Assembly: GCA_964646345.1 (NCBI GenBank)
Contig: CAZYDU010000001.1
Location: forward strand, 12,583 to 76,582
Origin: an uncultured Lachnospiraceae bacterium
GTDB taxonomy: Bacteria > Bacillota > Clostridia > Christensenellales > UBA1242
Length of the DNA: 64,000 bases
Reading direction: 5' to 3'
Part shown: piece after piece, positions 6,558 through 38,051 of the stretch
How the letters are laid out: each line of letters opens with the position of its first letter
How positions within the stretch are numbered: the first letter of the stretch is position 1
The notes under the pieces: generated by a model
What the model was told of the DNA's origin: nothing
The model's database searches: none
The model's input: the letters and a program-made list of their open reading frames with translations, nothing else
Made by a program: the position numbers and the translations under genes

Positions 6558-7953
6558 TTTGTACATCTCCTTGTAAATCATAACCCTTAACTTTTGTTAT
6601 TTTCACTTTATAAATTTTCCCAATTTCAAGCGGAACTTTAGACTTGAAAAATACTAAAGTATCAGCTTCAGGAGTTTGATATTGACTTCTTCCAAAGAAT
6701 AATTGTTTTTCATAGTCAATACCTTCATAGCAAACATCTAAAGTTTTTCCAACAAAACTTTTATTGATTTCATTTGCAATCTTTTGCTGAATACGCATAA
6801 GTTTTAAAAGCCTGCGGGTTTTTATATCATCAGGGATTTGGTCAACGAAGTTCGCAGCAGTTGTGTCAGCTTCTTTTGAGTAAGCGAAAAATCCAACATG
6901 CATGAGCTTGTATTTTTGAATAAACTCAACAAGTTCATCAAAATCCTTATCAGTCTCCCCAGGAAATCCTACCATATAAGTCGTTCTAATTGCAATAAAT
7001 TCAGGTGCATTTTTGATTTTTTCTAGCAAATTAACTATATCTTTTTGGCAAGTTTTTCTATTCATTCGTTTCAAAACTTTATCGGAAACATGTTGAAGCG
7101 GAATGTCAATATATTTGCAAACCTTAGGATTATTGATGATTTCATTTAAAAGTTCATCTGAGAGTTTTTCAGGATAACAATACAAAAGTCGAATCCATTT
7201 TAAGTCTTCAATCGTTGAAAGTTTCTTTATAAGCTTAACAATTTCAGGCTTGCCGGTTTTGTCTTCGCCGTATCTTGAAATATCCTGGGCAACTAAGATA
7301 AGTTCACTTGCACCATTTTCAACAAGTTTCACTGCTTCTTCATACAAATTATCAATATCCATTGACCTGTAACGCCCGCGAATAAACGGAATCGTACAGA
7401 ATGTGCAAAAGTTATCACAGCCGTCCGCAATTTTTAAATATGCATAGTGCATTGGAGTTGTGACAACTCTATTTTTTATGAAAGGCAAACTTTTCGTGCT
7501 TCCAACTTTCACAATTTTTTTACTGCTATCAAAAGATGCTTTCAAAATGTTTGCAATCTCTGGATAACTATCAATACCCAAAACAATATCTATTTCAGGA
7601 AATTCATTTAATATATTTGAAGACCACCTTTGTGGCAAACAACCGGTAACAACCAATCTCTTGCAACGATATTTCGGATTTTTTCTATATTGAACCATCT
7701 CAGCAATAGCTTCCATTGATTCATTTCTTGCTGTCTCAATAAAACCACAAGTATTAATGATAATTATATCCGCATTTGATGCATCGGCAGTGAATTTGTA
7801 TCCAGCTTCAAATAAATAGGTCAGCATAATTTCAGAATCAACTCTATTTTTATCGCAACCCAAAGAAATTACCCCAACATTCATAGGTCTTGTTATGGTA
7901 GCATTCGTTTCTTTTGTATTTGTTTTTTGTTTAGCTTTTGTAGTTTCAGCCAT
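6547..7953 (-). CDS. rimO: ribosomal protein S12 methylthiotransferase RimO (MiaB-family radical SAM)
   Basis: ISLGCDKNRVDSE N-terminal MTTase motif, radical SAM CDNFCTFC, C-terminal TRAM-like domain. Confidence 0.85.
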   Translation of the reverse strand: MAETTKAKQKTNTKETNATITRPMNVGVISLGCDKNRVDSEIMLTYLFEAGYKFTADASNADIIIINTCGFIETARNESMEAIAEMVQYRKNPKYRCKRLVVTGCLPQRWSSNILNEFPEIDIVLGIDSYPEIANILKASFDSSKKIVKVGSTKSLPFIKNRVVTTPMHYAYLKIADGCDNFCTFCTIPFIRGRYRSMDIDNLYEEAVKLVENGASELILVAQDISRYGEDKTGKPEIVKLIKKLSTIEDLKWIRLLYCYPEKLSDELLNEIINNPKVCKYIDIPLQHVSDKVLKRMNRKTCQKDIVNLLEKIKNAPEFIAIRTTYMVGFPGETDKDFDELVEFIQKYKLMHVGFFAYSKEADTTAANFVDQIPDDIKTRRLLKLMRIQQKIANEINKSFVGKTLDVCYEGIDYEKQLFFGRSQYQTPEADTLVFFKSKVPLEIGKIYKVKITKVKGYDLQGDVQNEI

Positions 7954-7959
7954 TTGATA

Positions 7960-9633
7960 TTAGTCCTCCAAATCCTTAATTATAAGGTCAAGTTCGGTGT
8001 CGTTAACCATTGCGGATTTTATGTGTGTAATCTTTCCATTTGAAATATTATAATAAAGTGCATCACTTTCTTCAGGCAAATCTTCAGCACCCTTTTCGCC
8101 AATAGTAAATCTTGAATCTTCATCACTTTTAAAGCTGATTCTTGAAGATAAGTTATAGTTAACTTGATTTGATTCAATAGGCAACTTTGCGGTTACCACA
8201 CAATAAACTCCTGCAATTCTTCCAAATTTTAATATTTGATAAAGACAAGTGTTAATTTTGTCTTTATCGGTCGCCTGAGACGCTGATGTATAGTTATTAA
8301 ACACAACATTTATATAAGGCATAGTAGAAAATCCACCAGAAACTGCACCTTCATTATAGCCTTCGACAGTCTTTACACCAAGTTCCGCCATTTTGTCGTA
8401 TCTATTATCTATTTCCTTTGCAATCTCAATCAAAGTATCAGCAATTTCTTTATTTGTTTTTGCAATACGATTGAAATAAAGGTAAGAACTTTTATTGTAA
8501 ACTTCAAAGGAACTATCAATATTAGAATCCAAAAGCACAAAATTAACATCATGATAACTATTTTTTAAGCATAAGCTCAAAATCATGGAATTTAAAAATG
8601 AATTTGTAATAAGATCGTTTTTACCAAAAACTGCAAGATTAAAATGTTCTTTGAAATTGCCAAAAATCGTTTCAGCCTTTTCATTTTTTCCCATAATATA
8701 TGAGAGTTTATCAGTATTCTTAAACTCGTCAGTGGTTATTTCATTGATAAATTTAAAATCTTCAATGATTTGATATTTTGAACTTATAATTTTCTTTTCT
8801 TCAGCTTCCGCTTGTTTTTCCTTTTCAGCATTTTCACTTTCTTTAAGCTCGTTTTGCAAGATTTCTTTAAGTTGATTAAAGTCAGTGATAATATCCAAAT
8901 CTTCGTCTGATGTTTGTGGATTAGCTGTTTCTTTGCTCGAAACATTTTCTAAAACTTTGTTAGATTCTTCAGGTTCAGCAACGGATTCTTCCAATTCGTC
9001 AACAGAAGTTTCTTTAGCATTATCCAAATCTTCAGATTCTTCGGAAATATTTTCAGTTTGTTCTAATGTTTCTTCAGAATCTTCCATAATCTCAACTTTT
9101 TCATCTTCATCAAATTTTGGTTCAATGTCAATACTGGTATTAAAATCATTATTAAAATCGTCTTCCGAATTTGTTTCTTCAGTGTCTTTGATTTCGTTAT
9201 TTTCAACATCGCTGGTATCAAATTCTTCAGTGTCCATATCTTCTAGCAATTCATTAAGCAAATCATCTAATTCATGTTTGTTTTTTGATTCTGGTGGTGG
9301 AGTTGGTTTTTCAGGTTCTGAAGCAGGCTGAGCCGATGGAACTGTGTCATCTTTGACTTCAAAAGCCGAGAAAGCACTAAATTTAGATAAGTTTTCTTCA
9401 CTTAATCCTTCATCTTCTTGAACTTTATCAGAACTAGCTTCGCTGGAATTTAATTCATTTACTTCAGATTCTGCACTATCTGAAGCATTTGAATTTTCCA
9501 ACTGAATTTCTTCTCTATTTGGATTGTAGTCATTATACATATTTGGGTCAGATTCAACGCCACGTTCTCTATCAAGTTCTTCCCTAGCTTTTTTTAATTC
9601 TTCTAAATCAACACCACTTACATTTTTATCCAA
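7960..9633 (-). CDS. acidic protein with a degenerate (Walker A/B-less) FtsK/SpoIIIE-like C-terminal domain
   Basis: TTG start 7 nt after GAGGA, 15 nt downstream of the ftsK stop. The N-terminal ~300 aa are D/E/S-rich. The C-terminal ~230 aa are collinear with the FtsK motor, but GSTGSGKS is replaced by FGKNDLITNS and IVDELAE by VVFNNYTS. Confidence 0.6.
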   Translation of the reverse strand: MDKNVSGVDLEELKKAREELDRERGVESDPNMYNDYNPNREEIQLENSNASDSAESEVNELNSSEASSDKVQEDEGLSEENLSKFSAFSAFEVKDDTVPSAQPASEPEKPTPPPESKNKHELDDLLNELLEDMDTEEFDTSDVENNEIKDTEETNSEDDFNNDFNTSIDIEPKFDEDEKVEIMEDSEETLEQTENISEESEDLDNAKETSVDELEESVAEPEESNKVLENVSSKETANPQTSDEDLDIITDFNQLKEILQNELKESENAEKEKQAEAEEKKIISSKYQIIEDFKFINEITTDEFKNTDKLSYIMGKNEKAETIFGNFKEHFNLAVFGKNDLITNSFLNSMILSLCLKNSYHDVNFVLLDSNIDSSFEVYNKSSYLYFNRIAKTNKEIADTLIEIAKEIDNRYDKMAELGVKTVEGYNEGAVSGGFSTMPYINVVFNNYTSASQATDKDKINTCLYQILKFGRIAGVYCVVTAKLPIESNQVNYNLSSRISFKSDEDSRFTIGEKGAEDLPEESDALYYNISNGKITHIKSAMVNDTELDLIIKDLED

Positions 9634-9648
9634 AATCTTATCCTCACT

Positions 9649-12462
9649 TTATGAATTATAATCTTCACCAAAAATTTCTTTAAATTTATCGGGAGTAATT
9701 AAAATTTGTCTTTGTTTAGCACCAGTTGCAGGTGCAATGTATCCTTTTTCTTCCATTTGGTCAACAATTCTAGCAGCTCTTGAATAACCTATTGAAAGTC
9801 TACGTTGCAAGTAACTTACAGAAGCCGAGCCATTTAACATAACTGACTTAACTGCAATTTTAAAGTATTCGTCAACTCTATTGTTTGCAGGAGCTGAATC
9901 AACAAATTGGTCGCCTGAACCCGCATCTCCAGACACTTGTGGGTCTGATGTGAATGCTTTTTCCGCTTCTTCATCAAAGACAGCAACGTTGTTTCGTTTT
10001 ACAAAATCAACAACAGCTTTTATTTCGTCATCTGATGCATAAGCACCTTGAAGTCTAGGCATAGCCGAAGTATCGGTTAATTGCATGAGCATATCGCCTT
10101 GATTTAAGAGTTTTTCAGCACCAACAGTATCAAGCATGGTTTTTGAGTCAAATGAAGACTGGAGACGGAAAGCAAATCTTGATGGAACGTTGTTTTTAAT
10201 GACACCAGTAATGATATTTACTGAAGGTCTTTGAACAGCTAAAACCAAGTGCATACCGCACGCACGAGCAAGTTGTGTGATTCTTTGAATAGCTGGGTCT
10301 GCTTCCTTTTTGTAGTTAATCATAATTTCTGCAAGCTCATCGACAATAATAACAATATATGGGAAATGCTCGAATTGACCAGATTTTACAAGCTCCGACT
10401 TGTTGTAATCTTCAATGTTTTTGTAGTTGGCTCTACCCATGATTTCAAAACGTCTATCCATTTCTTTAACACACCACTTGAGTGCACTTACCGCTTTTTC
10501 AGTGCCAAGCACAACCTTTGGTGCAACAAGATGCGGAAGACCATTATAAAACCCAAATTCAACTTGTTTGGGGTCAATCATAACAAGTCTTAAATCTTCT
10601 GGGCCATACTTGTAAATCAAACTTAACACTAGGTTATGAATGAAAACAGATTTACCTGAACCGGTTGAACCAGCAATCAAAACGTGAACCATTTTTGCTA
10701 AGCTTTTAACAATGATTTGTCCTGAAATATCTTTTCCGATAGCGATTGGAAGTGGACCTTTTGCGTTTTGAAACTCAGGAGATTCCAAAAGCTCTCTTTC
10801 AAATACACTTGTGAATGTATCATTTTCAAGTTCAATACCAACATAACTACTTCCAGGAATTGGAGCTTGAATTGTAACAGATTTGGCAGCCAAAGCTCTT
10901 TGAATGTCTTGTTCATAGTTTGGAATTTTCTTGACAGAAACACCATAAGGCACTGACAATTCATATCTAGTAATTTTTGGACCACGAACTATATTTACAA
11001 CTTTTGCAGGCACATTGAATGATTCCAAAACATCTTCAAGTTGCTTAGATTTTCTAGCTTGTTCTTCCGAATAATTCCCAGTATCTTTAACAGGACGAGC
11101 AAGCAGTGAAAGTGGTGGCGGATTGTATCTCACACCAATCATTGATGTTTGTTTTCCATTTGGCACAACCGGTTTTTCAACCTTTTCAACTTTTGGAGAT
11201 GTTGGAATACCCGTCAAAATTCCTTTGTTTCTATCTTCAATATTGTCAATATTATTTTCATAAGGATTTGAAACCGGCGGATTGATATTTTCACCAAATG
11301 GTTCTGGAGAAACTGGTTTAATATTTAAAATATCGTCTTTTGGCTCATTGAAAACAGGCTCGAATGGCGTAATATCATCAGGTATTAAATTTTCAACATC
11401 ATCTTCTTCTTTTGTTAAAATATCTTTAACATTATCGGCAATTTTTATATCATCTGGCGACTCGCCATTACCCCACAAATCATTAGAACCCTTTGGTGTT
11501 TTTGGAATTTCAACCGTTTCAAAACCTGTCAAATCAGTACCAAAATTTGAATAGTTGTTTGGTTGTTCATCTAATTCGTATTCAGTCTGTTTAACTTCAT
11601 TTGTGTTTTGCCCAAAATTACCAAAAGTTCCAGAAATAAATTCTTGTCTAGATTTTGTTAAGGTCTCGTTATCATAAGTTTTGAAAGGATTATTGTATGA
11701 TTCTTCAGACTCAGGATAATCATTCCCATTAACTGGTTCTTCATATTCATCAACAATATCGTCTGGAGAATAAACCGGAGCTTCTTTGTATTCAGTTTGC
11801 GAATAATTAATATCTTCTTCAGTAGCTTCAATAGTACCAAGTTCATCTGAATATTTATTATACCCATAACTTGGCATACCATTTTTGGCATCTTTATCAC
11901 TATTATTCACTTTCTCACGTTGCTTTTTTGTTGATAATTTTTTTATGTTTTCGTCAAACTTGCCATAGTTTTCATAATCAACAATCAAACCAACTGAAAT
12001 TGTAAACAATATAACAAAAGCAACTATCGCACCCATAGCACCAAGCAACATTGCAAATAATCCAACAAAAATTGAACCAAATGAACCGACTAGAGTAATT
12101 TTATCGGTGTATGAAAATTTTAAATAAGTTTTTAATGATGCAAATGACACAACCTTGTCGAGTTGTTTATATGTTGAAATTGCTTGGATAACAAACAATA
12201 AACTTACCAGAATTAAGATAAAATAAACCGTTGATTTTTTATTTCTTTTGTATTTTAAACCTAAGAACTTTGCAAGCTCAATCAAACTTAAAATCAAAAA
12301 CAATGGATAAGTCATGATACCAAATGTGCAAACAATCCACTTGCCTATTGGCAACACACTTTTTAAGCATGCAAAAATAAAAGCAAGCGAAAAAACTATC
12401 AAGCAAATCATGCTTAATATTTTTCGTTTTTGCAAATTGATATTATTAGTTTTGTTTTCCAA
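9649..12462 (-). CDS. ftsK: DNA translocase FtsK/SpoIIIE
   Basis: N-terminal TM helices, linker, Walker A GSTGSGKS, Walker B IVDELAE, gamma winged helix SYLQRRLSIGYSRAARIVDQMEEKG. Confidence 0.93.
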   Translation of the reverse strand: MENKTNNINLQKRKILSMICLIVFSLAFIFACLKSVLPIGKWIVCTFGIMTYPLFLILSLIELAKFLGLKYKRNKKSTVYFILILVSLLFVIQAISTYKQLDKVVSFASLKTYLKFSYTDKITLVGSFGSIFVGLFAMLLGAMGAIVAFVILFTISVGLIVDYENYGKFDENIKKLSTKKQREKVNNSDKDAKNGMPSYGYNKYSDELGTIEATEEDINYSQTEYKEAPVYSPDDIVDEYEEPVNGNDYPESEESYNNPFKTYDNETLTKSRQEFISGTFGNFGQNTNEVKQTEYELDEQPNNYSNFGTDLTGFETVEIPKTPKGSNDLWGNGESPDDIKIADNVKDILTKEEDDVENLIPDDITPFEPVFNEPKDDILNIKPVSPEPFGENINPPVSNPYENNIDNIEDRNKGILTGIPTSPKVEKVEKPVVPNGKQTSMIGVRYNPPPLSLLARPVKDTGNYSEEQARKSKQLEDVLESFNVPAKVVNIVRGPKITRYELSVPYGVSVKKIPNYEQDIQRALAAKSVTIQAPIPGSSYVGIELENDTFTSVFERELLESPEFQNAKGPLPIAIGKDISGQIIVKSLAKMVHVLIAGSTGSGKSVFIHNLVLSLIYKYGPEDLRLVMIDPKQVEFGFYNGLPHLVAPKVVLGTEKAVSALKWCVKEMDRRFEIMGRANYKNIEDYNKSELVKSGQFEHFPYIVIIVDELAEIMINYKKEADPAIQRITQLARACGMHLVLAVQRPSVNIITGVIKNNVPSRFAFRLQSSFDSKTMLDTVGAEKLLNQGDMLMQLTDTSAMPRLQGAYASDDEIKAVVDFVKRNNVAVFDEEAEKAFTSDPQVSGDAGSGDQFVDSAPANNRVDEYFKIAVKSVMLNGSASVSYLQRRLSIGYSRAARIVDQMEEKGYIAPATGAKQRQILITPDKFKEIFGEDYNS

Positions 12463-24672: not shown

Positions 24673-24806
24673 ATTCGGATACCTTTTTAAAGAGATCTCT
24701 CCACGCAGTCGCTTCGCTCCTTTGGTCGAGATGACAAAGTAGACCCAGTGTCATTTCGAGCAGAGTGAAACGAAGTCGAGAAATCCCCCATCTCAAAGAC
24801 GTTACA
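24673..24806. repeat. dispersed palindromic-module repeat, locus 1 (B module then A module)
   Basis: B: GAGATCTCTCCACGCAGTCGCTTCGCTCCTTTGGTCGAGATGACA. A: GTGTCATTTCGAGCAGAGTGAAACGAAGTCGAGAAATCCCCCATCTCAAAGACGTTACA. The same modules recur at 26915, 37898 and 50888. Confidence 0.85.
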
Positions 24807-24859: not shown

Positions 24860-25351
24860 TTATTTTTTACTTGTTTTTGTTGTTTTTTTTGTTGCAGTTT
24901 TTTTAGCAGTAGATTTTTTTGGCTTTTCTGTTTTTGTTTCTTCAGTTGCTTCTGCATTTACTTTTTCTTCAACTGGAGTTTCTTCAACCGCTTCTGCTTT
25001 AGCTTCAGATTCTTCTTTTGATTCTTCAACTTTGGTTGATTTCAAAACACAGTAGATTGAACTCATATCAAATTCCATATAAGATTTCTCAGATTTTGAA
25101 CCAGTTTCTAAAATAACAGTTTTTATTTCGCCTTTATCGGTAATTTTTGTTACCCTACCAATAATTCCGCCAGCAGTTTTAACCAAATCTCCAACTTTGA
25201 TACCTGAAAGCATATCCATGTATTGTTGATTTCTTTTTCTATTTGTAAAGTATGGCAAAATAAGCATTGCAACAACCATTACAATTAAAATAACATAAAT
25301 TACAATACTGCTTCCATTTGATGCTTCATCAGCACATAAAAAATTTAACAT
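24860..25351 (-). CDS. yajC: preprotein translocase subunit YajC with a long E/K-rich C-terminal tail
   Basis: TM helix plus the GDLVKTAGGIIGRV YajC core. About 60 extra charged residues at the C-terminus. Confidence 0.85.
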   Translation of the reverse strand: MLNFLCADEASNGSSIVIYVILIVMVVAMLILPYFTNRKRNQQYMDMLSGIKVGDLVKTAGGIIGRVTKITDKGEIKTVILETGSKSEKSYMEFDMSSIYCVLKSTKVEESKEESEAKAEAVEETPVEEKVNAEATEETKTEKPKKSTAKKTATKKTTKTSKK

Positions 25352-25449
25352 ATTACTTCTCCTTTAATGAACATAGTTTAGCAAAATTTCACATGTTTTG
25401 CAAGTCTTTTTAGCTTAAAAACAATGCTTCTATGTAACATTTTGACGAA

Positions 25450-26882
<1,433 letters not shown>

Positions 26883-26914
26883 AATCTTCTCCTTTTTGTA
26901 TATGATTATTAATA

Positions 26915-27106
26915 GTGTCATTTCGAGCGGAGCAAGGCGGAGTCGAGAAATCCCCCATCTCGAAGACGTAACACATTTCATACGGATAGTTCATGGGGCT
27001 CTCTCCACGCAGTCGCTTCGCTCATTTGGTCGAGATGACACAACACCCCAGTGCCATTTCGACTGGAGCGTTAGCGGAATGGAGAAATCCCCCATCTCGA
27101 AGATGC
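26915..27106. repeat. dispersed palindromic-module repeat, locus 2 (A - linker - inverted B - A')
   Basis: A is 26915-26972, linker CATTTCATACGGATAGTTCA, B runs to 27042, and a second A-like unit is 27051-27106. The ends GTGTCATTTCGAGC / GGTCGAGATGACAC are imperfect inverted repeats. Confidence 0.85.
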
Positions 27107-29219: not shown

Positions 29220-29831
29220 TTATTTATGTAAATTCTTTAAACATACAACAACAAGTTCTTCACTCTTCATTCCGCTTTCGTAGTTGTTTTTTACACTTTC
29301 GGTGGCGGTATTTTTCTGAACACCCATGTTAGTTAAAACATCATAAGCTTCTTGCATTTCTTTGTTTAATGCAGGAGTTCCAAGGTTTAGATTTGTATCA
29401 TTTGCAATCAAGTTTTCTAAGTTTGCTTCCCCGCCAAGCTTCCCATTAAGTTCCAAAACAATTCTTTCAGTTGTCTTTTTGCCAAGACCTTTTATGCTAG
29501 ACAAAAGTTTAACATCGCCTGAAATAATTGCTCTTATAATTTCATCAATAGGAAGCCCTGAAAGTATTGTTATTGCCATTTTTGGACCAACCCCCGAAAC
29601 CAATAAAAGGTCATTAAATAATAACTTTTCTTTTTTATCTAAAAATCCAAACAAACTCATTCCGTCATCTCTAACTTGCAAATATGTCAAAATGGTTTGT
29701 GGTTCAGCTGAACCTGAAAGTTTGTATGCCGTGTATGATGAACAAACAACTTCAAATGCAATAGCACCAGTATCAACAACAACCGTATTGTCATCAATCA
29801 TTGTAATTTTTCCAGTTAGTGAATAAATCAT
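29220..29831 (-). CDS. ruvA: Holliday junction DNA helicase RuvA
   Basis: MIYSLTGK start, HhH motifs VSGVGPKMA and IKGLGKKTTERI. Confidence 0.93.
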   Translation of the reverse strand: MIYSLTGKITMIDDNTVVVDTGAIAFEVVCSSYTAYKLSGSAEPQTILTYLQVRDDGMSLFGFLDKKEKLLFNDLLLVSGVGPKMAITILSGLPIDEIIRAIISGDVKLLSSIKGLGKKTTERIVLELNGKLGGEANLENLIANDTNLNLGTPALNKEMQEAYDVLTNMGVQKNTATESVKNNYESGMKSEELVVVCLKNLHK

Positions 29832-30391
29832 TATTTTAATTTCCTTTTTATAGTTTGATTAATATCATTTTTCATTAAGTTATTATTAGTCCAAACAGTT
29901 GCGTCACTATTTGTAAGTTTTGTATTGGTTTGAGCCAAAGTTAAAGCAACAGCCAAAGCGTCCGCAGCATCATCAGGCTTTGGAATGCTTTTTAATTTAA
30001 GTATAGTTTTTGTCATAAACTGAACCGATTTTTTATCAGCTTTGCCATCACCAGTAATCGAAAGTTTAATTTGCATTGGAGTAAATTCAAAAACATTTGG
30101 GACGGTTTTTATTGCCGTACACAAAATAACTCCCCTTGCTTCGGCAACCGCAATACCCGTTGTTATATTTTGATTAAAAAACAATTCTTCAACAGCTACT
30201 GCATCGGGCTGAAATTTTTCCATAAGCTCCTGCATTCCGTCTTGTATCATAGCAAGTCTCACTGGAAAATCTTCTTCTTTCGGTGTGTTTATCGCACCAA
30301 AATCCAAAACCCTGCAATTTCCCCTGTTATCCTTTTCAATTACGCCATAACCAACTATCGCATATCCTGGGTCAATACCTAATATTCTCAT
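29831..30391 (-). CDS. ruvC: crossover junction endodeoxyribonuclease RuvC
   Basis: MRILGIDPGY canonical N-terminus, EELFF, DAADALA. Start set at ATG 30391; the ORF-track TTG extension is rejected. The stop overlaps the ruvA start (TAATG). Confidence 0.92.
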   Translation of the reverse strand: MRILGIDPGYAIVGYGVIEKDNRGNCRVLDFGAINTPKEEDFPVRLAMIQDGMQELMEKFQPDAVAVEELFFNQNITTGIAVAEARGVILCTAIKTVPNVFEFTPMQIKLSITGDGKADKKSVQFMTKTILKLKSIPKPDDAADALAVALTLAQTNTKLTNSDATVWTNNNLMKNDINQTIKRKLK

Positions 30392-30487
30392 AATAATAAA
30401 ATAAACCAAATAAACATTAAAGTCAATAAATTTGCAATACGTGAAGAATTAAAGTAATTTAGACTACTTAAAAAAATAAAAAGACTA
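30384..30487. repeat. 104-bp direct repeat, ruvC-proximal copy
   Basis: Base-for-base identical to 32469-32572. Contains the first 8 nt of ruvC (ATGAGAAT on the minus strand) plus its upstream region. Confidence 0.95.
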
Positions 30488-30520
30488 GGCAAAATTGAAG
30501 TGCACCCCCAATGCCTAGTT
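30471..30520 (-). terminator. putative terminator after the radical SAM gene
   Basis: Stem ACTAGGCA (30484-30491) / TGCCTAGT (30512-30519) with a 20-nt loop, then a T-rich tract on the minus strand. The stem starts inside the repeat. Confidence 0.4.
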
Positions 30521-30532
30521 ATATTTAGTAAG

Positions 30533-32019
30533 TTAAACTTTCATTATTTCACTACTTTTTAGTTGATTCACATCATGTGAATAATTTAAATATTCAAATA
30601 ATCGATTTGATTGATTTTTTTTCAAATAGTTATTTTCACTAAAAAATTGCTCTATCTTCAACAATAAATTTGCATCTTTGATAAAATAATGTCCATTCTT
30701 TATTAAATTATAATAATCAAATAAAACTGTTTCATCAATTTTACCCTGATTGTTTAATTGTGTAAGAATATCATATGTTGATTGATTATAAAAAGTTTCC
30801 AATTCATCATCCGACATATTTATAAACATTTTTAAATCGTTAGATAACAAATCAACCTGCTCTTTACCAACTAATCCACTTTTTAGATATCTTTTTAAAA
30901 TGGTAATTTGATAAAATAATAATGTATTCTTTTCTTGCAACAAATACAGGCCTGAATAGTCACGTATATTTATTGCAATAGCCCTATCTGCCGCACACTT
31001 ATTTACCTTTCGCACTATTCTGTCCCGTTCAAAATAATTCATGTTTAAAAAAGAATAACTAACAGGGTCTTTATAAAGTTTTTCTAATATTTCTAACTTT
31101 GAATGCTTGTAAATATTTGGCATATTTTCCAACTGATAATTTCCCCAAGTTGAAATATTGCCTGCATAATTTATAAGAAAATCTAATCCATATTCACCTA
31201 AACTATCTCTATAAATTGAAAAATTATTCATCGGGCTACTATTAATATCTTTCTCAAACACATCAAAAGCTCTTTTTACTAAATTTTTATCATTCAAATT
31301 TACATTAAGATTTGGATAAAACATTTTCGATACTTCTATATCAAAAGATAAACCATTTTTAGTCTTGCCTATGTATTTTTTATTTTTAATTATTTCTTTA
31401 ATTGAAACATTATTAGCTAATTTTGAAAAAATCGTTTCATCATTTTCCATTGTATGGAATTTTACTTGAAAGTTCTTCAACTTCGAATAATTTTCATCGA
31501 AATAATCAATAATATTCTCAATATTTGAAAAATTAACATTTTTATTGTGAAACTTATCCACTGATAAACGCAATATAACATTTACATCATTATTTCTTGC
31601 AATCTTTTCATTATATATGGTATTTATAATTTCAAAAGTCTGTTCTTTATTATCAGCCCAATATCCACTAGTAACAATTATAATATTATCAGTTTTAACG
31701 GTTCTTACTAACCTTATTAATTGTTCAAAATTCTCAAATGGTTCACCGCCACCAGATATTTCCAAAGTTTCCAAATTAACAAAATTTAGAAATTCAACCA
31801 ATTTTTCAGTTCCACGTTTTGAAAATTCATTCATTTCAGAATTATATTCAACGTTTCTTTTTTTGACTGAAAAAAACAAAAAGGACATTCTACAGGACAA
31901 AATTTCGTTAGAAAAACAACCGCCATAGACTTGCCCCTATAATAAGAAGGTTTATCTATTTTTACTTTTTTATTAATTTCTTCTATATATTTTTGTGGAT
32001 AATCAAATATATTTTTCAC
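30533..32019 (-). CDS. radical SAM protein with a long Cys-poor C-terminal region. The frame is interrupted at an A7 run (needs a -1 shift; pseudogene, slippage or homopolymer error).
   Basis: ORF 31831..32019 carries LTKFCPVECPFCFF (CxxxCxxC). ORF 30533..31900, in the -1 frame, carries ISGGGEPF about 40 aa later. The frames join at TCAAAAAAAG (31858-31864). The GTG start overlaps the NUDIX stop (GTGA). Confidence 0.7.
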
Positions 32020-32432
32020 AATTTTGTCCCTATTATTTTTAATATCCTTTCATAAACATCAGGATATGTTGTATTATTTGGAAATTTTTCAAATAATTTA
32101 ATTTCGGCCATTTCATAATTTGGCAAAGATTCCAATTTATTAATATTCGCATAAAATAAGGCACTATATTGAATGGGACTCATATTATAATTCGCAAGAT
32201 AACCTAATAGTTTAAATTCATCACAAATAGCTCCGGATTCTTCAAATAATTCCCTTCTAGCAGCTTCTACCATAGTTTCATTTTTTTCAATATGCCCACC
32301 AACTATTTCATAAGTACTTCTTTCTTTGTGTCTACAAAAAACCCACTTATCCTTATACCTTGCTAAAACCAAAACTATTGAAATATTCTTAGTTTTTAAA
32401 TTATTATAATATCTAATGTTTCGAACACTCAT
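32016..32432 (-). CDS. NUDIX hydrolase
   Basis: Nudix box GGHIEKNETMVEAARRELFEESG. Start set at the ATG (MSVRNIRYY) 8 nt after GGTGG. Confidence 0.8.
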   Translation of the reverse strand: MSVRNIRYYNNLKTKNISIVLVLARYKDKWVFCRHKERSTYEIVGGHIEKNETMVEAARRELFEESGAICDEFKLLGYLANYNMSPIQYSALFYANINKLESLPNYEMAEIKLFEKFPNNTTYPDVYERILKIIGTKL

Positions 32433-32468
32433 ATTAATTACCACCAACCATGTTAATTATAATAACTA

Positions 32469-32572
32469 ATTCTCATAATAATAAAATAAACCAAATAAAC
32501 ATTAAAGTCAATAAATTTGCAATACGTGAAGAATTAAAGTAATTTAGACTACTTAAAAAAATAAAAAGACTA
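32469..32572. repeat. 104-bp direct repeat, distal copy
   Basis: Identical to 30384-30487. Here the ruvC start is followed by a 7-codon stub (MRISYYN*) and then the NUDIX gene. Confidence 0.95.
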
Positions 32573-32593
32573 AACAATAAATTTAGTCTTTTT
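32563..32593 (-). terminator. rho-independent terminator after the zeta-like gene
   Basis: Stem AAAAAGACTAAA (32563-32574) / TTTAGTCTTTTT (32582-32593). The 5' arm lies inside the 104-bp repeat. Confidence 0.65.
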
Positions 32594-32608
32594 CAAGTTT
32601 GTTATTTT

Positions 32609-33568
32609 TTATTGAAATTGTTTTGTGTTTTTTATAACATTGCAAACATCTTCAAATTGGTTTACATGTGCTGAAATTGCACCCCTTTTTTCCATTTGAG
32701 TTTTCACTTTAGCTATCCTTTCGTCAGCTTCTTGCATTGTTAAATCTCTATCTTCATCAACTGCTTCTCTATATTCAGCAAGAAGTATAGATTTATCATC
32801 TGTTATAAATATTGGTTCTGGTAATTCTTCTTCATTACCAGTAATCACTGCTCTTTTTAATAAATTTATACTAACTTCTGGGTGATTTATAAGCAAATCT
32901 TTAATAACAATTTCAACTGCCTTAAATGATTCTCTTGCACGATTAAAATCAGTTAATTTTGGAGATTGCATATTTGATTCAATCTGACCCTCGAAACGTT
33001 CATGTATAGAAAGAAGACTATTTTCTTCCGAAACTGCTAAAATATAAGCTTCAATATCATAACCAAAACGTGCAAGTTCTTCAAAATTAATATTAAACAA
33101 AAGTTCATTTGGAGATGGAGCGACTTCTATTAGAATATTATATCCTTTTTGTAACGCTTCTGCATAAACTTCATCTCTATGCAAATAAGCATCAAGTCCT
33201 GTTAAATGACCATAATATTGTGGATACTTTTCTTTTATTTCGTCCTTGTTTGGATTAAAAGCCTTAAATTCATCAGAGTCAATGATGATTGTATTGCTGT
33301 TATTTTTATAAATAGCTGTTGTTAAGTTGCTTTTTCCAGCCCCAGTTTGTGCAATAACCAAAAATGCTTTTGGTCTCTCAACTGCACGGTCGACAGGTTT
33401 CTTATTCTTAAAACAATTATCCCTAATCTGTTGCAAGACTCTATAATGTTCTTCTTCACTTAAAGCATAATCTAACATAAGCTGTGCAACTTCTGGCTTG
33501 ATTTTTGGCGAAATTCTTGGTTTCAAAAATTCAATATATTCTGGGCTTTTCATGTTTTTTTGTTCCAT
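32609..33568 (-). CDS. zeta/PezT-like toxin family P-loop kinase
   Basis: Walker A AQTGAGKSN, then IIIDSDEFKAFNP and GYNILIEVAP, laid out as in zeta toxins. 319 aa with about 60 extra C-terminal residues. Confidence 0.72.
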   Translation of the reverse strand: MEQKNMKSPEYIEFLKPRISPKIKPEVAQLMLDYALSEEEHYRVLQQIRDNCFKNKKPVDRAVERPKAFLVIAQTGAGKSNLTTAIYKNNSNTIIIDSDEFKAFNPNKDEIKEKYPQYYGHLTGLDAYLHRDEVYAEALQKGYNILIEVAPSPNELLFNINFEELARFGYDIEAYILAVSEENSLLSIHERFEGQIESNMQSPKLTDFNRARESFKAVEIVIKDLLINHPEVSINLLKRAVITGNEEELPEPIFITDDKSILLAEYREAVDEDRDLTMQEADERIAKVKTQMEKRGAISAHVNQFEDVCNVIKNTKQFQ

Positions 33569-33780
33569 TATTTCACCCCTTTATTTGTGTTTAACACAAA
33601 ATCTATTGCTCTCATATTACCCCTGAAAATAAGCTCTTTTTCATTGAAAGCCTCGTTAAGTTCTTGATTGTATAGCTCAACTTCATACTCGTTTTTTGCT
33701 GAGTCTAATTTGTTGTAAATATCAGCAATTTTTTCCGTTATAATCTGAATTGCTATTTCTAGTTTGACATGACTTACCAT
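33568..33780 (-). CDS. putative antitoxin (small helical protein, epsilon/PezA-position)
   Basis: 70 aa ORF. Its stop overlaps the toxin start (TAATG), and the RBS for the toxin lies inside its 3' end. It sits behind a strong promoter. Called by context only. Confidence 0.5.
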   Translation of the reverse strand: MVSHVKLEIAIQIITEKIADIYNKLDSAKNEYEVELYNQELNEAFNEKELIFRGNMRAIDFVLNTNKGVK

Positions 33781-33988: not shown

Positions 33989-34732
33989 TTACTTGTAAGT
34001 TTCTTCGAGTTCATGTTGAATTTCTTCTGCACGAGCAATTTGCTCATTCAAATTCCATTTACCAATATTTTTGCCGTCTCGTAAAAACATTGAACCACAT
34101 TGATGAAAATAAAATTCAATATTTCGTTCTTTTGCTTCCAAAAACAAATCCCTAACCCATTCAAATCTAATTGGACGAACTTCGTTTTGTGGAGCCATTT
34201 CGCCTCCAACATTTACACACTTAATTAAACCAGTGTCTAAATATTTTCCAAGTTTTATTGGACCAATTAGCGGAGAACAAAAAACTTCTCTATGTTTTAC
34301 TGGTGCTTTCAAAAAATGTTGTAGACGAATATCAGCCATCTCTTGATTTTCTATTGAAATACTAATATGTACATGATCCCAACCATCGCCCCAATCTGAC
34401 GGAACACACTCTGCAATTCTTTCTGGTCTTTTCGTGGTTGTAACAAAAATGCAATCCTTTCTTCTGCGAATAAAATTCCAACATTCCTCACGCCACTCAT
34501 CTGCTTCTTCAATAAAAAAATCCGAAGAAAAGCACAACTTAACCAATGAATTTGGTGGACAATCTTTATCTTTCAATTCAAAAGTCGTTTTTCCTTTCGT
34601 TATAATGGTCGTATCTCTACCATATCTTTTATCCATTTTATAAACAAAACAATTCTTACAACCAGCACTAGCTTTTTTGCAACCATGCCAAGGGTTCCAA
34701 GGAATTGCTTTCCCAATTTTATCATTTTGCAT
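33989..34732 (-). CDS. DUF5131 / phage Gp37-Gp68 family protein
   Basis: N-terminal IPWNPWHGCKKASAGCKNCF signature, SSDFF, TTTKRPERI, VGGEM..RP, FYFHQCG. Collinear with the Gp37/Gp68 family. Confidence 0.8.
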   Translation of the reverse strand: MQNDKIGKAIPWNPWHGCKKASAGCKNCFVYKMDKRYGRDTTIITKGKTTFELKDKDCPPNSLVKLCFSSDFFIEEADEWREECWNFIRRRKDCIFVTTTKRPERIAECVPSDWGDGWDHVHISISIENQEMADIRLQHFLKAPVKHREVFCSPLIGPIKLGKYLDTGLIKCVNVGGEMAPQNEVRPIRFEWVRDLFLEAKERNIEFYFHQCGSMFLRDGKNIGKWNLNEQIARAEEIQHELEETYK

Positions 34733-34807: not shown

Positions 34808-35545
34808 TTATTCATCTAAAATAGAAAGGTCGGCACTTGTGTAAACATTTTGAACATCGTCCAAATCCTCAAGAGCTAAAACTAGTTTATTTACAGAAAT
34901 TGCTGAGTCTTTATCAAGTGCGATTTGGTTTTGTGGAACATATTCAACTTCACTTGAAACAAGTTCATAGTTTGCAGTTTCACAAGCCTTTGCTACTTCA
35001 TGCAAATTTTCAGGACTTGTGATAATTTCGAAGCATTCATCATCAACAATAACATCATCTGCACCATTATCCAAAGCAACCATCATAACATCATCTTCAG
35101 TTATACCATCTTTCTTATTAATGATGATTATACCTTTATAATCAAACATATATGTTACACTTCCGCTAGTTCCAAGTGAACCATTATATTTATCAAATAA
35201 GTGTCTAACATCTGCAGCGGTTCTATTTCTGTTATCAGTCAAGCATTCAACGATAAAAGCAACACCATGTGAACCATATCCTTCATAAGTGATTGCATCG
35301 TAGTTTCCACCATCTTCACCACCACTAGCCTTCTTGATTGACCTTTGAATATTATCGTTTGGCATGTTGTTTTGCTTAGCTTTTTGAATAACATCATAAA
35401 GTTTGCTATTAATGTTAGGGTCAGGGCCACCCAACTTAACTGCAACAGCAATTTCACGACCTATTTTTGTAAAGATTTTTCCCCTAGCAGCATCAGCTTT
35501 GTTTTTTGTAGCTTGAATGTTGTGCCATTTTGAGTGTCCGCTCAT
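34808..35545 (-). CDS. yebC: YebC/PmpR family DNA-binding transcriptional regulator / translation factor
   Basis: MSGHSKWHNIQ start. 245 aa. Confidence 0.95.
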   Translation of the reverse strand: MSGHSKWHNIQATKNKADAARGKIFTKIGREIAVAVKLGGPDPNINSKLYDVIQKAKQNNMPNDNIQRSIKKASGGEDGGNYDAITYEGYGSHGVAFIVECLTDNRNRTAADVRHLFDKYNGSLGTSGSVTYMFDYKGIIIINKKDGITEDDVMMVALDNGADDVIVDDECFEIITSPENLHEVAKACETANYELVSSEVEYVPQNQIALDKDSAISVNKLVLALEDLDDVQNVYTSADLSILDE

Positions 35546-37897: not shown

Positions 37898-38051
37898 TGT
37901 CATTTCGAGCGAAACGTAGTGTAGTCGAGAAATCCCCTTTCTCGGAGACGTTACACATTTTCATACGGATAGTTCAGGGAGATCTCTCCACGCAGTCACT
38001 TCGCTCCTTTGGTCGAGATGACAAGGCAAGACAAAACGGTCGAGATGGCAC
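37898..38051. repeat. dispersed palindromic-module repeat, locus 3 (A - linker - inverted B - partial B)
   Basis: TGTCATTTCGAGCGAAACGTAGTGTAGTCGAGAAATCCCC..CATACGGATAGTTCA..GATCTCTCCACGCAGTCACTTCGCTCCTTTGGTCGAGATGACA, plus GGTCGAGATGGCAC. Confidence 0.85.

Follow-up and report, generated by a model that had tools for sequence, protein, structure and literature searches.

We identified a strain-variable two-gene cassette in the ruvC promoter region of an uncultured Lachnospiraceae bacterium, within a 64,000-nucleotide (nt) stretch of contig CAZYDU010000001.1 (assembly GCA_964646345.1, positions 12,583–76,582 of the forward strand) that we refer to throughout as the window. The cassette encodes a NUDIX hydrolase and a radical SAM (rSAM) protein and is bracketed by two exact 104-bp direct repeats, termed R, whereas near-identical strains carry a single R and no cassette at the same site. 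With moderate confidence we read this arrangement as the insertion of a promoter-less NUDIX–rSAM operon into the ruvC promoter region, accompanied by a 104-bp target duplication. The reading builds on the duplication itself, the empty site, the regulatory content of R, the lack of a recombinase or of element ends, and the location of the cassette in an accessory-gene hotspot.

Two exact copies of R bracket the cassette

Direct comparison of the two R copies, distal and proximal to ruvC (30384–30487 is the proximal one; all features are listed in Table 1), revealed 104 of 104 identical bases, as a preliminary description of this DNA, made from its letters alone, had reported, and a match that ends abruptly on either side. 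The copies are spaced 2085 nt from start to start. R is the sole exact repeat of at least 30 nt on either strand of the window, and no other exact direct repeat within 8 kb exceeds 24 nt. All genes of the region lie on the minus strand and, in the order of transcription, read yebC, DUF5131, a 70-aa open reading frame (ORF) with a zeta-toxin-like gene (ORF70/zeta), distal R, NUDIX, rSAM, proximal R, ruvC, ruvA, ruvB and queA. The segment between the repeats has a G+C content (GC) of 25.4%, compared with 34.9% for the flanking core genes. Pfam detected only PF00293 and PF13353 in this segment, with neither a transposase nor an integrase, and inspection of its ends revealed no inverted repeats, so that the cassette holds just the two genes, overlapping at GTGA, and lacks mobility functions, in agreement with the preliminary description. 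No recombinase was found in the yebC–ruvC interval or among the large ORFs scanned, and the rest of the window resembles an ordinary Bacillota chromosome.

Near-identical strains carry the empty site

An exact look-up of the RuvC protein returned three metagenome contigs (L001–L003; runs SRR14160744, SRR14160769 and SRR14160758) in which zeta is followed by ruvC after 132 nt, with one R copy between them. These contigs aligned gap-free, at 99.95% identity, to the window minus one R and the 1981-bp segment (2085 bp). Mapping of positions, carried out without L003, placed the two mismatches at 34089 and 30212, and a donor tract marked by single-nucleotide polymorphisms was rejected on this count. 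Because the empty site is exact in strains that are 99.95% identical, the cassette is a real presence/absence polymorphism. A site with one R between zeta and ruvC was the check proposed in the preliminary description, and its exactness supports the recent mobility suggested there.

The same order of zeta terminator, R and ruvC was also found in L008–13 (95% identity) and L014–16 (83%; identities over ruvC–ruvA). Both R copies of the window equal the R of L001 and the R of L008 differs at three positions, so the duplication, or its last homogenization, is younger than the split from L008. Among further contigs, L078, of the same run series and with a threonyl-tRNA synthetase (ThrRS) ~100% identical to that of the window, was tried as a near-identical strain that might reach the cassette; it stops at the start of DUF5131, at the left edge of the yebC–ruvC interval. 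The named ThrRS relatives are metagenome-assembled genomes labelled ‘Clostridia bacterium’, at 82–86% identity.

R carries terminator and promoter-like sequences

On the coding strand, R begins with TAGTCTTTTTATTTTTTT, which corresponds to the final bases of a hairpin 3′ arm and a T-tract, continues with the ruvC upstream region, in which a promoter scan placed the promoter-like TTGACT-17-TATTTT, and ends in each copy with ATGAGAAT. The TTGACT and TATTTT boxes, separated by a 17-nt spacer, lie at 32511–32506 and 32488–32483 in the distal copy and at 30426–30421 and 30403–30398 in the proximal copy. At ruvC (30389–30426) the −10-like TATTTT ends 6 nt before the ATG and a Shine–Dalgarno sequence is absent, so ruvC is probably leaderless. 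The 5′ arm and loop of the hairpin upstream of each R copy differ, belonging to zeta in one case and to the cassette in the other, and the first bases of R complete both hairpins: the last 4 nt of the cassette hairpin are the first 4 nt of proximal R, which then supplies its T-tract. Both structures fold better than shuffled controls (z about −3.1), and the zeta hairpin is conserved in the empty-site lineages. The repeat had been described as reaching into the 5′ arm of the zeta terminator; by the direction of transcription, it starts in the 3′ arm.

Since the T-tract arm of a terminator, the promoter of ruvC and its first 8 nt all lie within R, one copy would drive the cassette while the other maintains ruvC expression. 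The duplication would provide the cassette with a promoter, leave ruvC its own and terminate both upstream units. The suggestion in the preliminary description that the duplicated ruvC upstream region drives the cassette is borne out to the extent that a promoter-like site could be placed for both units. Its 7-codon stub MRISYYN* was likewise found where described: in distal R, the ruvC start codon reads into the cassette leader and stops before the NUDIX gene, whose ribosome-binding site is GGTGG and whose ATG lies at 32432.

The cassette encodes a NUDIX protein and a frameshifted rSAM protein

The NUDIX protein matched TIGR02705 (1e-17, below the cut-off) and PDB entry 4jzu (2e-11), and contains an intact Nudix box, GHIEKNETMVEAARRELFEESGA, that fits Gx5Ex7REUxEExGU and places the protein in the superfamily. 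The GTG start codon of the rSAM gene overlaps the NUDIX stop codon within GTGA (32016–32019). The rSAM gene is disrupted, which the preliminary description missed: a −1 frameshift within a poly-A stretch divides it into ORFs of 62 aa (31831–32019, with CxxxCxxC) and 455 aa (30533–31900). Across this point intact relatives, including P0002, read CPFCFFQSKKRK. The motifs CPVECPFC and SGGGEP, invariant in our alignment A2, are both present in the window, on the two reading frames separated by the frameshift. A sequencing error is unlikely, and we consider the frameshift real, because 53 other A/T runs of at least 7 nt in the window lie inside intact genes. Given this frameshift, the cargo of the cassette is probably decaying.

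The AlphaFold2 model of P0002, which is 71% identical to the window rSAM, reached a mean confidence (pLDDT) of 91.8. Its fold matched generic radical SAM cores only, the closest PDB matches being EpeE/YydG, anSME and MoaA, and its helical C-terminal domain had no match. PADLOC and NCBIfam gave no functional assignment for the rSAM/NUDIX pair. Searches with Pfam, NCBIfam and PADLOC detected no restriction or modification domain in the cassette, and assigning a cargo function through PADLOC, NCBIfam and PDB sequence and fold searches was abandoned after it yielded just generic rSAM core matches and an RppH/YtkD-like NUDIX. We found no literature describing this NUDIX–rSAM pair, and no carriage of the cassette in collections of phage, viral or plasmid DNA.

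The rSAM family recurs with phosphohydrolases

The window rSAM belongs to a widespread, unnamed family of ~500–530 aa. Fusions are common in it, with an N-terminal NUDIX domain in many members (~650–690 aa; P0012, P0042, P0055 and others) and with the histidine phosphatase domain His_Phos_1 in others (~710 aa; P0050, P0095, P0105–P0120); closer relatives (47–54% identity) retain the overlapping two-gene form. The co-occurrence raised in the preliminary description was therefore found: the pair recurs as a unit, even as a fused gene. Because the family is so often fused to a NUDIX or histidine-phosphatase domain, the pairing is taken to be functional, and the recurrence of these fusions suggests that the rSAM protein may act on a nucleotide-type substrate. 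Family members are also often preceded by a RelA/SpoT-like HD_4+TGS gene (loci L064, L048, L053 and L055), and the fusions and this neighbour together hint at nucleotide or alarmone-type substrate chemistry.

Across 46 species-representative genomes the family is scattered over Clostridia, uncultured Bacilli, Chlamydiae, Legionellaceae, Patescibacteria and DPANN archaea, and in these genomes it never lies next to ruvC. A scan of genome contigs found no close relative and, outside the genus of the window, no linkage to ruvC. Contexts of relatives include a position between dnaJ and rsmE (L063), one after the RelA/SpoT-like HD–TGS gene (L064) and one between a 149-aa ORF and a GH77 gene (L068–L072). 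Neighbours elsewhere encode a dNMP-kinase-like protein, a GFO/IDH/MocA oxidoreductase, another NUDIX protein, a B12-type rSAM protein and a peptidase S51.

One sister cassette (54% identity), from another organism and an unrelated locus, is also bracketed by an exact direct repeat, of 35–36 nt, in two independent records, L068, on a 498-kb scaffold, and L072 (JABLTK010062368.1). In L068 the repeat spans 7436–7471 and 9592–9627, with a spacing of 2156 nt and a degenerate extension to ~59 nt; both records show a GGAT microhomology at the inner joint. Contigs of 2177–2181 nt that carry only the L068-type cassette have identical 25-nt ends. A free 2.1-kb circle was rejected as their source, since all share a fixed start and end and so are not rotated circles. 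At a k-mer length (k) of 31, contig ends that overlap by 25 nt are expected from a flanking repeat of 35 nt, and such a repeat was present in the chromosomal copies. These ~2180-nt contigs are assembly-graph arms of a repeat-flanked unit. A metagenome scan for the empty site of the sister cassette returned an occupied record only.

The truncated rSAM genes of the sister contigs are due to internal mutations, for example CAA to TAA. More broadly, a large share of sister-cassette rSAM genes in metagenomes (P0003 cluster, P0163–P0175) are truncated; in the one case checked, at L076:1640, the lesion is a CAA-to-TAA change. Phase variation of rSAM through homopolymers was rejected because the L076 lesion is a nonsense substitution. 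Together with the window frameshift, the sister truncations suggest that the rSAM gene is often inactivated. The locus shows another indel: a GH77 gene (4-alpha-glucanotransferase-like) follows the sister cassette in L068 (L068:9682–11130), L070, L071 and L072 and is missing from L069 (2979–3090) behind the same promoter-like region.

Exact repeats of at least 18 nt are generally rare in rSAM-family loci. No sequence is common to the 104-nt repeat of the window and the 35–36-nt repeat of L068, and the ends of the cassettes show no conservation. Such complete differences in termini and repeats among family members argue that the cassette is not an element defined by ends of its own, and that no dedicated recombinase moves it. 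The brackets of the window and of L068 fit recent insertions that still show their target duplication.

The yebC–ruvC interval is an accessory-gene hotspot

The interval between yebC and ruvC is a strain-variable hotspot of accessory genes in this genus of uncultured Clostridia. In the window it contains DUF5131, ORF70/zeta and the NUDIX–rSAM cassette; in L008–13, DuOB, DUF488 and ORF70/zeta; in L014–16, ORF70/zeta only; and in L004–7, two helix-turn-helix (HTH) genes, DUF488, a YpsA-like gene and NUDIX–rSAM. The ORF70/zeta pair is conserved beside ruvC in L001, L008 and L014. No antitoxin family matched its 70-aa protein, and the score against the PezT equivalog falls far short of the cut-off. 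PADLOC returned weak matches or candidate families only, DUF5131 corresponding to the candidates PDC-M41B/M30B. At the 3′ end of zeta (32609–32640; L014:3070–3099; P0126, P0129) the length of a poly-A run varies among strains and yields alternative C-termini (...KNTKQFQ*, ...KTQNNFNKK* and ...KKQNNFNKT*). No R-like sequence precedes any other hotspot module in the four lineages, and an integron-like array in which each cassette is led by a copy of the ruvC promoter was rejected on that ground. The interval lacks an integrase, and the one structure at the 3′ end of the cassette is a hairpin of the terminator type with a T-tract behind it.

In the related lineage L004 the NUDIX–rSAM pair (79% nucleotide and 71% amino acid identity to that of the window) sits directly upstream of ruvC. 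The last ~19 codons of its rSAM gene and the terminator are homologous to the zeta tail and terminator and not to the rSAM tail of the window (L004:4474–4533 versus window 32608–32667). This tail is kept, down to 83% identity, in the zeta genes of cassette-free lineages, and the tails of distant rSAM homologues are unrelated to it; an origin within the rSAM family was rejected on these two grounds. As the tail is native to zeta, the L004 rSAM gene is seen to be fused in frame onto a zeta remnant, the joint lying at the imperfect microhomology ATGTRAAYCAA, and AlphaFold assigns low confidence (pLDDT <50) to precisely this zeta-derived tail. The simplest origin of the fusion is a deletion between rSAM and a zeta gene downstream of it, in a module order opposite to that of the window. 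Given this breakpoint and the opposite order, the cassette has joined the yebC–ruvC locus at least twice, with different breakpoints, which indicates repeated illegitimate joining.

Base composition differs between these modules. The GC of third codon positions (GC3) in the window is 0.23 for core genes, 0.18 for the cassette and 0.20 for the zeta module; in L004 it is 0.37 for core genes and 0.18 for the cassette; and in L014 it is 0.37 for core genes and 0.27 for the zeta module. The zeta module thus partly tracks the composition of its host, whereas the L004 cassette does not. Since a cassette with a GC3 of 0.18 resides in a host at 0.37, it has probably moved horizontally into L004, from a third, lower-GC lineage.

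Origin of the duplication

At the left joint the window reads ...ATGAGAAT|TAGTTATTAT, compared with ...ATGAGAAT|ATTAGGTATT in ruvC, and after a 2-nt offset 8 of 9 positions agree between the cassette and ruvC. The right joint falls within TAGT and the T-tract, which the cassette terminator needs and the zeta terminator supplies. We propose that congeneric donor DNA was joined by the host recombination and replication machinery at these two microhomologies in a ‘crossed’ order. The 5′ end of the cassette would have joined at ruvC +8 (cassette TTAGTTATT versus ruvC TTAGGTATT), and its terminator end 104 nt further upstream, where the zeta terminator has its TAGT/T-tract. Because the microhomologies would be crossed and 104 nt apart, the stretch between the two joints would be copied twice, onto both sides of the insert. 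The distal copy would then give the cassette its promoter and the proximal copy would maintain leaderless expression of ruvC, with each unit retaining a terminator. The identical repeats would permit RecA-dependent deletion, regenerating the exact empty site, or amplification, and the rSAM gene would have been frameshifted after insertion. Single-strand integration at microhomologies and homology-facilitated illegitimate recombination (HFIR) are documented processes (PMC3240628; bioRxiv 10.1101/2023.11.22.568220).

Several observations weigh against an insertion of this kind. The crossed microhomologies from which we infer the mechanism are short and AT-rich. The window-type cassette was seen nowhere except in the window's own assembly, and no donor was found. 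The direction of the polymorphism fits either an insertion in the window strain or a deletion in the sister strains. Bracketing repeats were found in only 2 of ~37 rSAM-family lineages, those of the window and L068. Finally, the synonymous divergence (dS) between the window and L004 is 0.92–1.30 for the cassette and 1.0–1.2 for core genes, and this equality is compatible with long residence of the cassette in the genus.

The preliminary description favoured Campbell-type integration of a ~2.09-kb circle. In the form considered here, a 2,085-bp circle of R and cassette, derived from a cassette-bearing strain, would have entered an empty-site strain by a single RecA crossover in R. R–insert–R with one R at the empty site is the exact product of such a crossover, 104 bp is long enough for RecA recombination, and the L004 cassette, which natively abuts the ruvC promoter, indicates that cassette–R–ruvC donors exist in the genus. 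Nothing demonstrates such a circle or its integration, however: we observed neither the circular form nor its junction, the seemingly circular ~2.18-kb contigs of the sister cassette proved to be graph arms with fixed ends, and collections of plasmids, phages and viruses lack the module. The donor R would also have to match at 104 of 104 positions, yet the nearest other lineage already differs at 3, and the first formation of the joint between R and NUDIX would still demand an illegitimate event. We regard this route as unlikely.

Somewhat less likely still, in our estimate, is that R–cassette–R is ancient in the genus, its repeats homogenized by gene conversion, and that the ‘empty’ strains are RecA deletions. 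The equal dS of cassette and core genes would follow, deletion between 104-bp repeats is precise and easy, and an rSAM gene that is already a pseudogene would leave no selection for retention. The L004 cassette, moreover, occupies the same position, and the sequence before its NUDIX gene resembles the L004 ruvC promoter over 60 nt at 72%, a score reached by none of 2000 shuffles. As a calibration, an unrelated consensus promoter of the window scored 32–34 against the L004 elements, compared with 42 for the L004 pair itself. Because an unrelated promoter scores almost as high, the ‘diverged repeat’ of L004, which we had taken up as proof of an ancient duplication, was downgraded and is only suggestive; it may reflect a shared promoter class. 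An old fixed duplication with diverged copies, named in the preliminary description as a finding that would count against recent mobility, thus appears only in part: the L004 cassette is in the same place, and its only repeat is a diverged promoter-like sequence. Further evidence against a resident cassette is that three lineages, with identities as low as 83%, have zeta terminator–R–ruvC, that the simplest origin of the L004 fusion puts the cassette upstream of zeta, opposite to the window, and that the GC3 of the L004 cassette has not approached that of its host.

A bolder extension of the insertion reading, which we consider improbable, is that NUDIX–rSAM cassettes constitute a recombinase-free mobile family that repeatedly inserts at promoters with long target duplication, captures and regenerates the host promoter and spreads as repeat-excised units, possibly aided by activity of the cargo on nucleotides or DNA. 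Very improbable is site-specific integration by a recombinase supplied in trans, the repeats being attL/attR of a cis-mobilizable element or of an integrative mobile element exploiting Xer (IMEX): insert-flanking direct repeats that restore the target gene are typical of integrases, and large serine recombinase genes lie near the distant family members L039, L046 and L051, but no recombinase lies in or adjoins the cassette, the window and L068 repeats are unrelated and of unequal length, the cassette termini are not conserved, and the L004 junctions are at other positions. We likewise give very little weight to an assembly artefact, whereby the assembler worked a mixture of strains, or a 2,085-bp unit (free or in tandem) that has R in common with the chromosome, a single time into the chromosomal sequence; the occupied allele is found in this one assembly only, the empty allele assembles through R in three samples of a series containing this strain background, and repeats above the k-mer size loop in assembly graphs, as with the sister cassette, but any path of this kind presupposes real molecules with the R|NUDIX and rSAM-hairpin|R junctions, the cassette lacks a gene for replication, its layout is coherent in promoter, ribosome-binding site and terminators, and the equivalent L068/L072 structure is found in two independent records, one of them a 498-kb scaffold.

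Comparison with known systems

Insertion–duplication (Campbell-type) integration of a non-replicating circle is a laboratory method in Streptococcus and Bacillus. It resembles the window in its product, an insert between homologous segments that RecA can excise, and differs in needing a pre-formed circle with the target segment; none was observed, and the origin of a circle would itself need an illegitimate joint. The arrangement is not that of an insertion sequence or DNA transposon, as it has neither a transposase nor terminal inverted repeats and the duplication is 104 bp rather than 2–15 bp. Nor is it that of an integrase-mobilized element, such as a prophage, an integrative and conjugative or mobilizable element (ICE/IME), a cis-mobilizable element (CIME) or an IMEX, as no recombinase is nearby and the repeats of the window and L068 are unrelated.

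The preliminary description saw here a candidate for an undescribed mobile module, yet the geometry is already described as a class, ‘insertion with long target duplication’ of restriction–modification genes (Nobusato et al. 2000, Gene 259:99; Furuta, Abe & Kobayashi 2010, PMC2853133). That class comprises repeats of >30 bp, present as a single copy at the empty site, around inserts of <20 kb without mobility genes; a translation start or stop often falls within the repeats, most of the hosts show natural competence, and the mechanism was left open and tentatively tied to DNA breakage by restriction enzymes (PMC2853133). In the window, the insert is absent from a close genome in which both flanks align (L001–L003, gap-free at 99.95%), a repeat of >30 bp is single at the empty site (L001–3, L008–13, L014–16), and the insert is 1981 bp long and lacks mobility genes. 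The resemblance extends to a small gene unit between long repeats (46–423 bp there, 104 bp here), a repeat that is local and unique, and an insert whose GC deviates from that of the genome. The cassette contains no restriction and modification genes, so it fits the structural class and not the cargo class. As the cargo lacks a DNA-cleaving enzyme, breakage driven by it cannot apply as such. A second difference is that the duplicated segment in the window is a whole promoter with a start codon, which would solve the expression of both units.

For HFIR and for short-patch or other double illegitimate recombination (SPDIR/DIR), the proposed intermediates are single strands annealing at replication forks (PMC3240628; bioRxiv 10.1101/2023.11.22.568220). 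These processes likewise join foreign DNA at short microhomologies without a recombinase. The documented events are, however, mostly replacements, deletions and microindels, and a 2-kb insertion with a 104-bp duplication is an extrapolation from them. The hotspot in turn recalls the core defence hotspots between conserved genes described in Pseudomonas (Johnson et al. 2023, PMC10250203), with a fixed yebC–ruvC interval and different accessory modules per strain, including a toxin–antitoxin-like pair; unlike there, no module of the yebC–ruvC interval is a validated defence system.

Long target duplication, so far tied to restriction–modification genes, is a recurrent and mechanistically unexplained route of gene mobility. 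The case in the window is clean, as the empty site and the repeats are exact, microhomology marks both joints and the cargo is nuclease-free, and it points to a general host recombination process, for which a 104-bp promoter segment and a 2-kb insert provide a defined substrate for testing. If its origin proves ordinary, the locus is still a well-documented strain polymorphism of a kind that assemblers can mishandle. It also flags the widely scattered radical SAM/phosphohydrolase pair and the yebC–ruvC hotspot in gut-type Clostridia as functional targets.

Radical SAM and phosphohydrolase pairs that make nucleoside analogues include OxsB/OxsA of oxetanocin synthesis and viperin-type enzymes. 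As in OxsB/OxsA, the rSAM protein is obligately paired or fused with a nucleotide phosphohydrolase, here a NUDIX or histidine phosphatase. It has no B12 domain, and there is no kinship in sequence or fold beyond the generic radical SAM core.

Features of the window

Table 1 Features of the R-bracketed cassette and of the yebC–ruvC interval, in window positions
Feature	Position	Strand	Description
ruvC	29831–30391	−	186 aa, intact; PF02075 3e-47; followed by ruvA, ruvB, queA
Proximal R	30384–30487	−	Cassette terminator 3′ arm and T-tract, promoter, first 8 nt of ruvC
Cassette terminator hairpin	30484–30519	−	ACTAGGCA...TGCCTAGT; −19 kcal/mol, z −3.1
Unique cassette segment	30488–32468	−	1981 bp; absent from L001–L003
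rSAM gene	30533–32019	−	~495 aa if repaired; PF13353; frameshifted
Frame-break homopolymer	31858–31864	−	Plus-strand T7, coding-strand A7; A8 would restore the frame
NUDIX hydrolase gene	32016–32432	−	138 aa; PF00293 E 1.2e-10; RppH/YtkD-like
Stub ORF MRISYYN*	32453–32476	−	ATG AGA ATT AGT TAT TAT AAT TAA; 7 codons
Distal R	32469–32572	−	Zeta terminator 3′ arm and T-tract, ruvC upstream region, ATGAGAAT; exact identity with 30384–30487
Zeta terminator hairpin	32563–32593	−	AAAAAGACTAAA-TTTATTG-TTTAGTCTTTTT; −13.6 kcal/mol, z −3.2; 3′ arm inside distal R
Zeta-toxin-like gene	32609–33568	−	319 aa; PF06414 1.5e-22
70-aa ORF	33568–33780	−	Upstream of and overlapping zeta; the pair is a resident module whose terminator abuts R
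DUF5131 gene	33989–34732	−	Pfam
yebC	34808–35545	−	Conserved left border of the variable interval

Outside this interval, GC-rich repeated intergenic units at 24696–24806 and 26914–27103 flank the genes at 24860–26571. The units, for example GTCATTTCGAGC...GAGTCGAGAAATCCCCCATCTCGAAGACGT, and TCTCTCCACGCAGTCGCTTCGCTC.TTTGGTCGAGATGACA at 98% identity, resemble repetitive extragenic palindromic (REP)-type elements, and near 37900 there is a sequence that looks related to them. A second, divergent FtsK/SpoIIIE-family gene (7960–9633; 557 aa, Pfam E 2.4e-11) is located directly downstream of a full-length ftsK (9649–12462).

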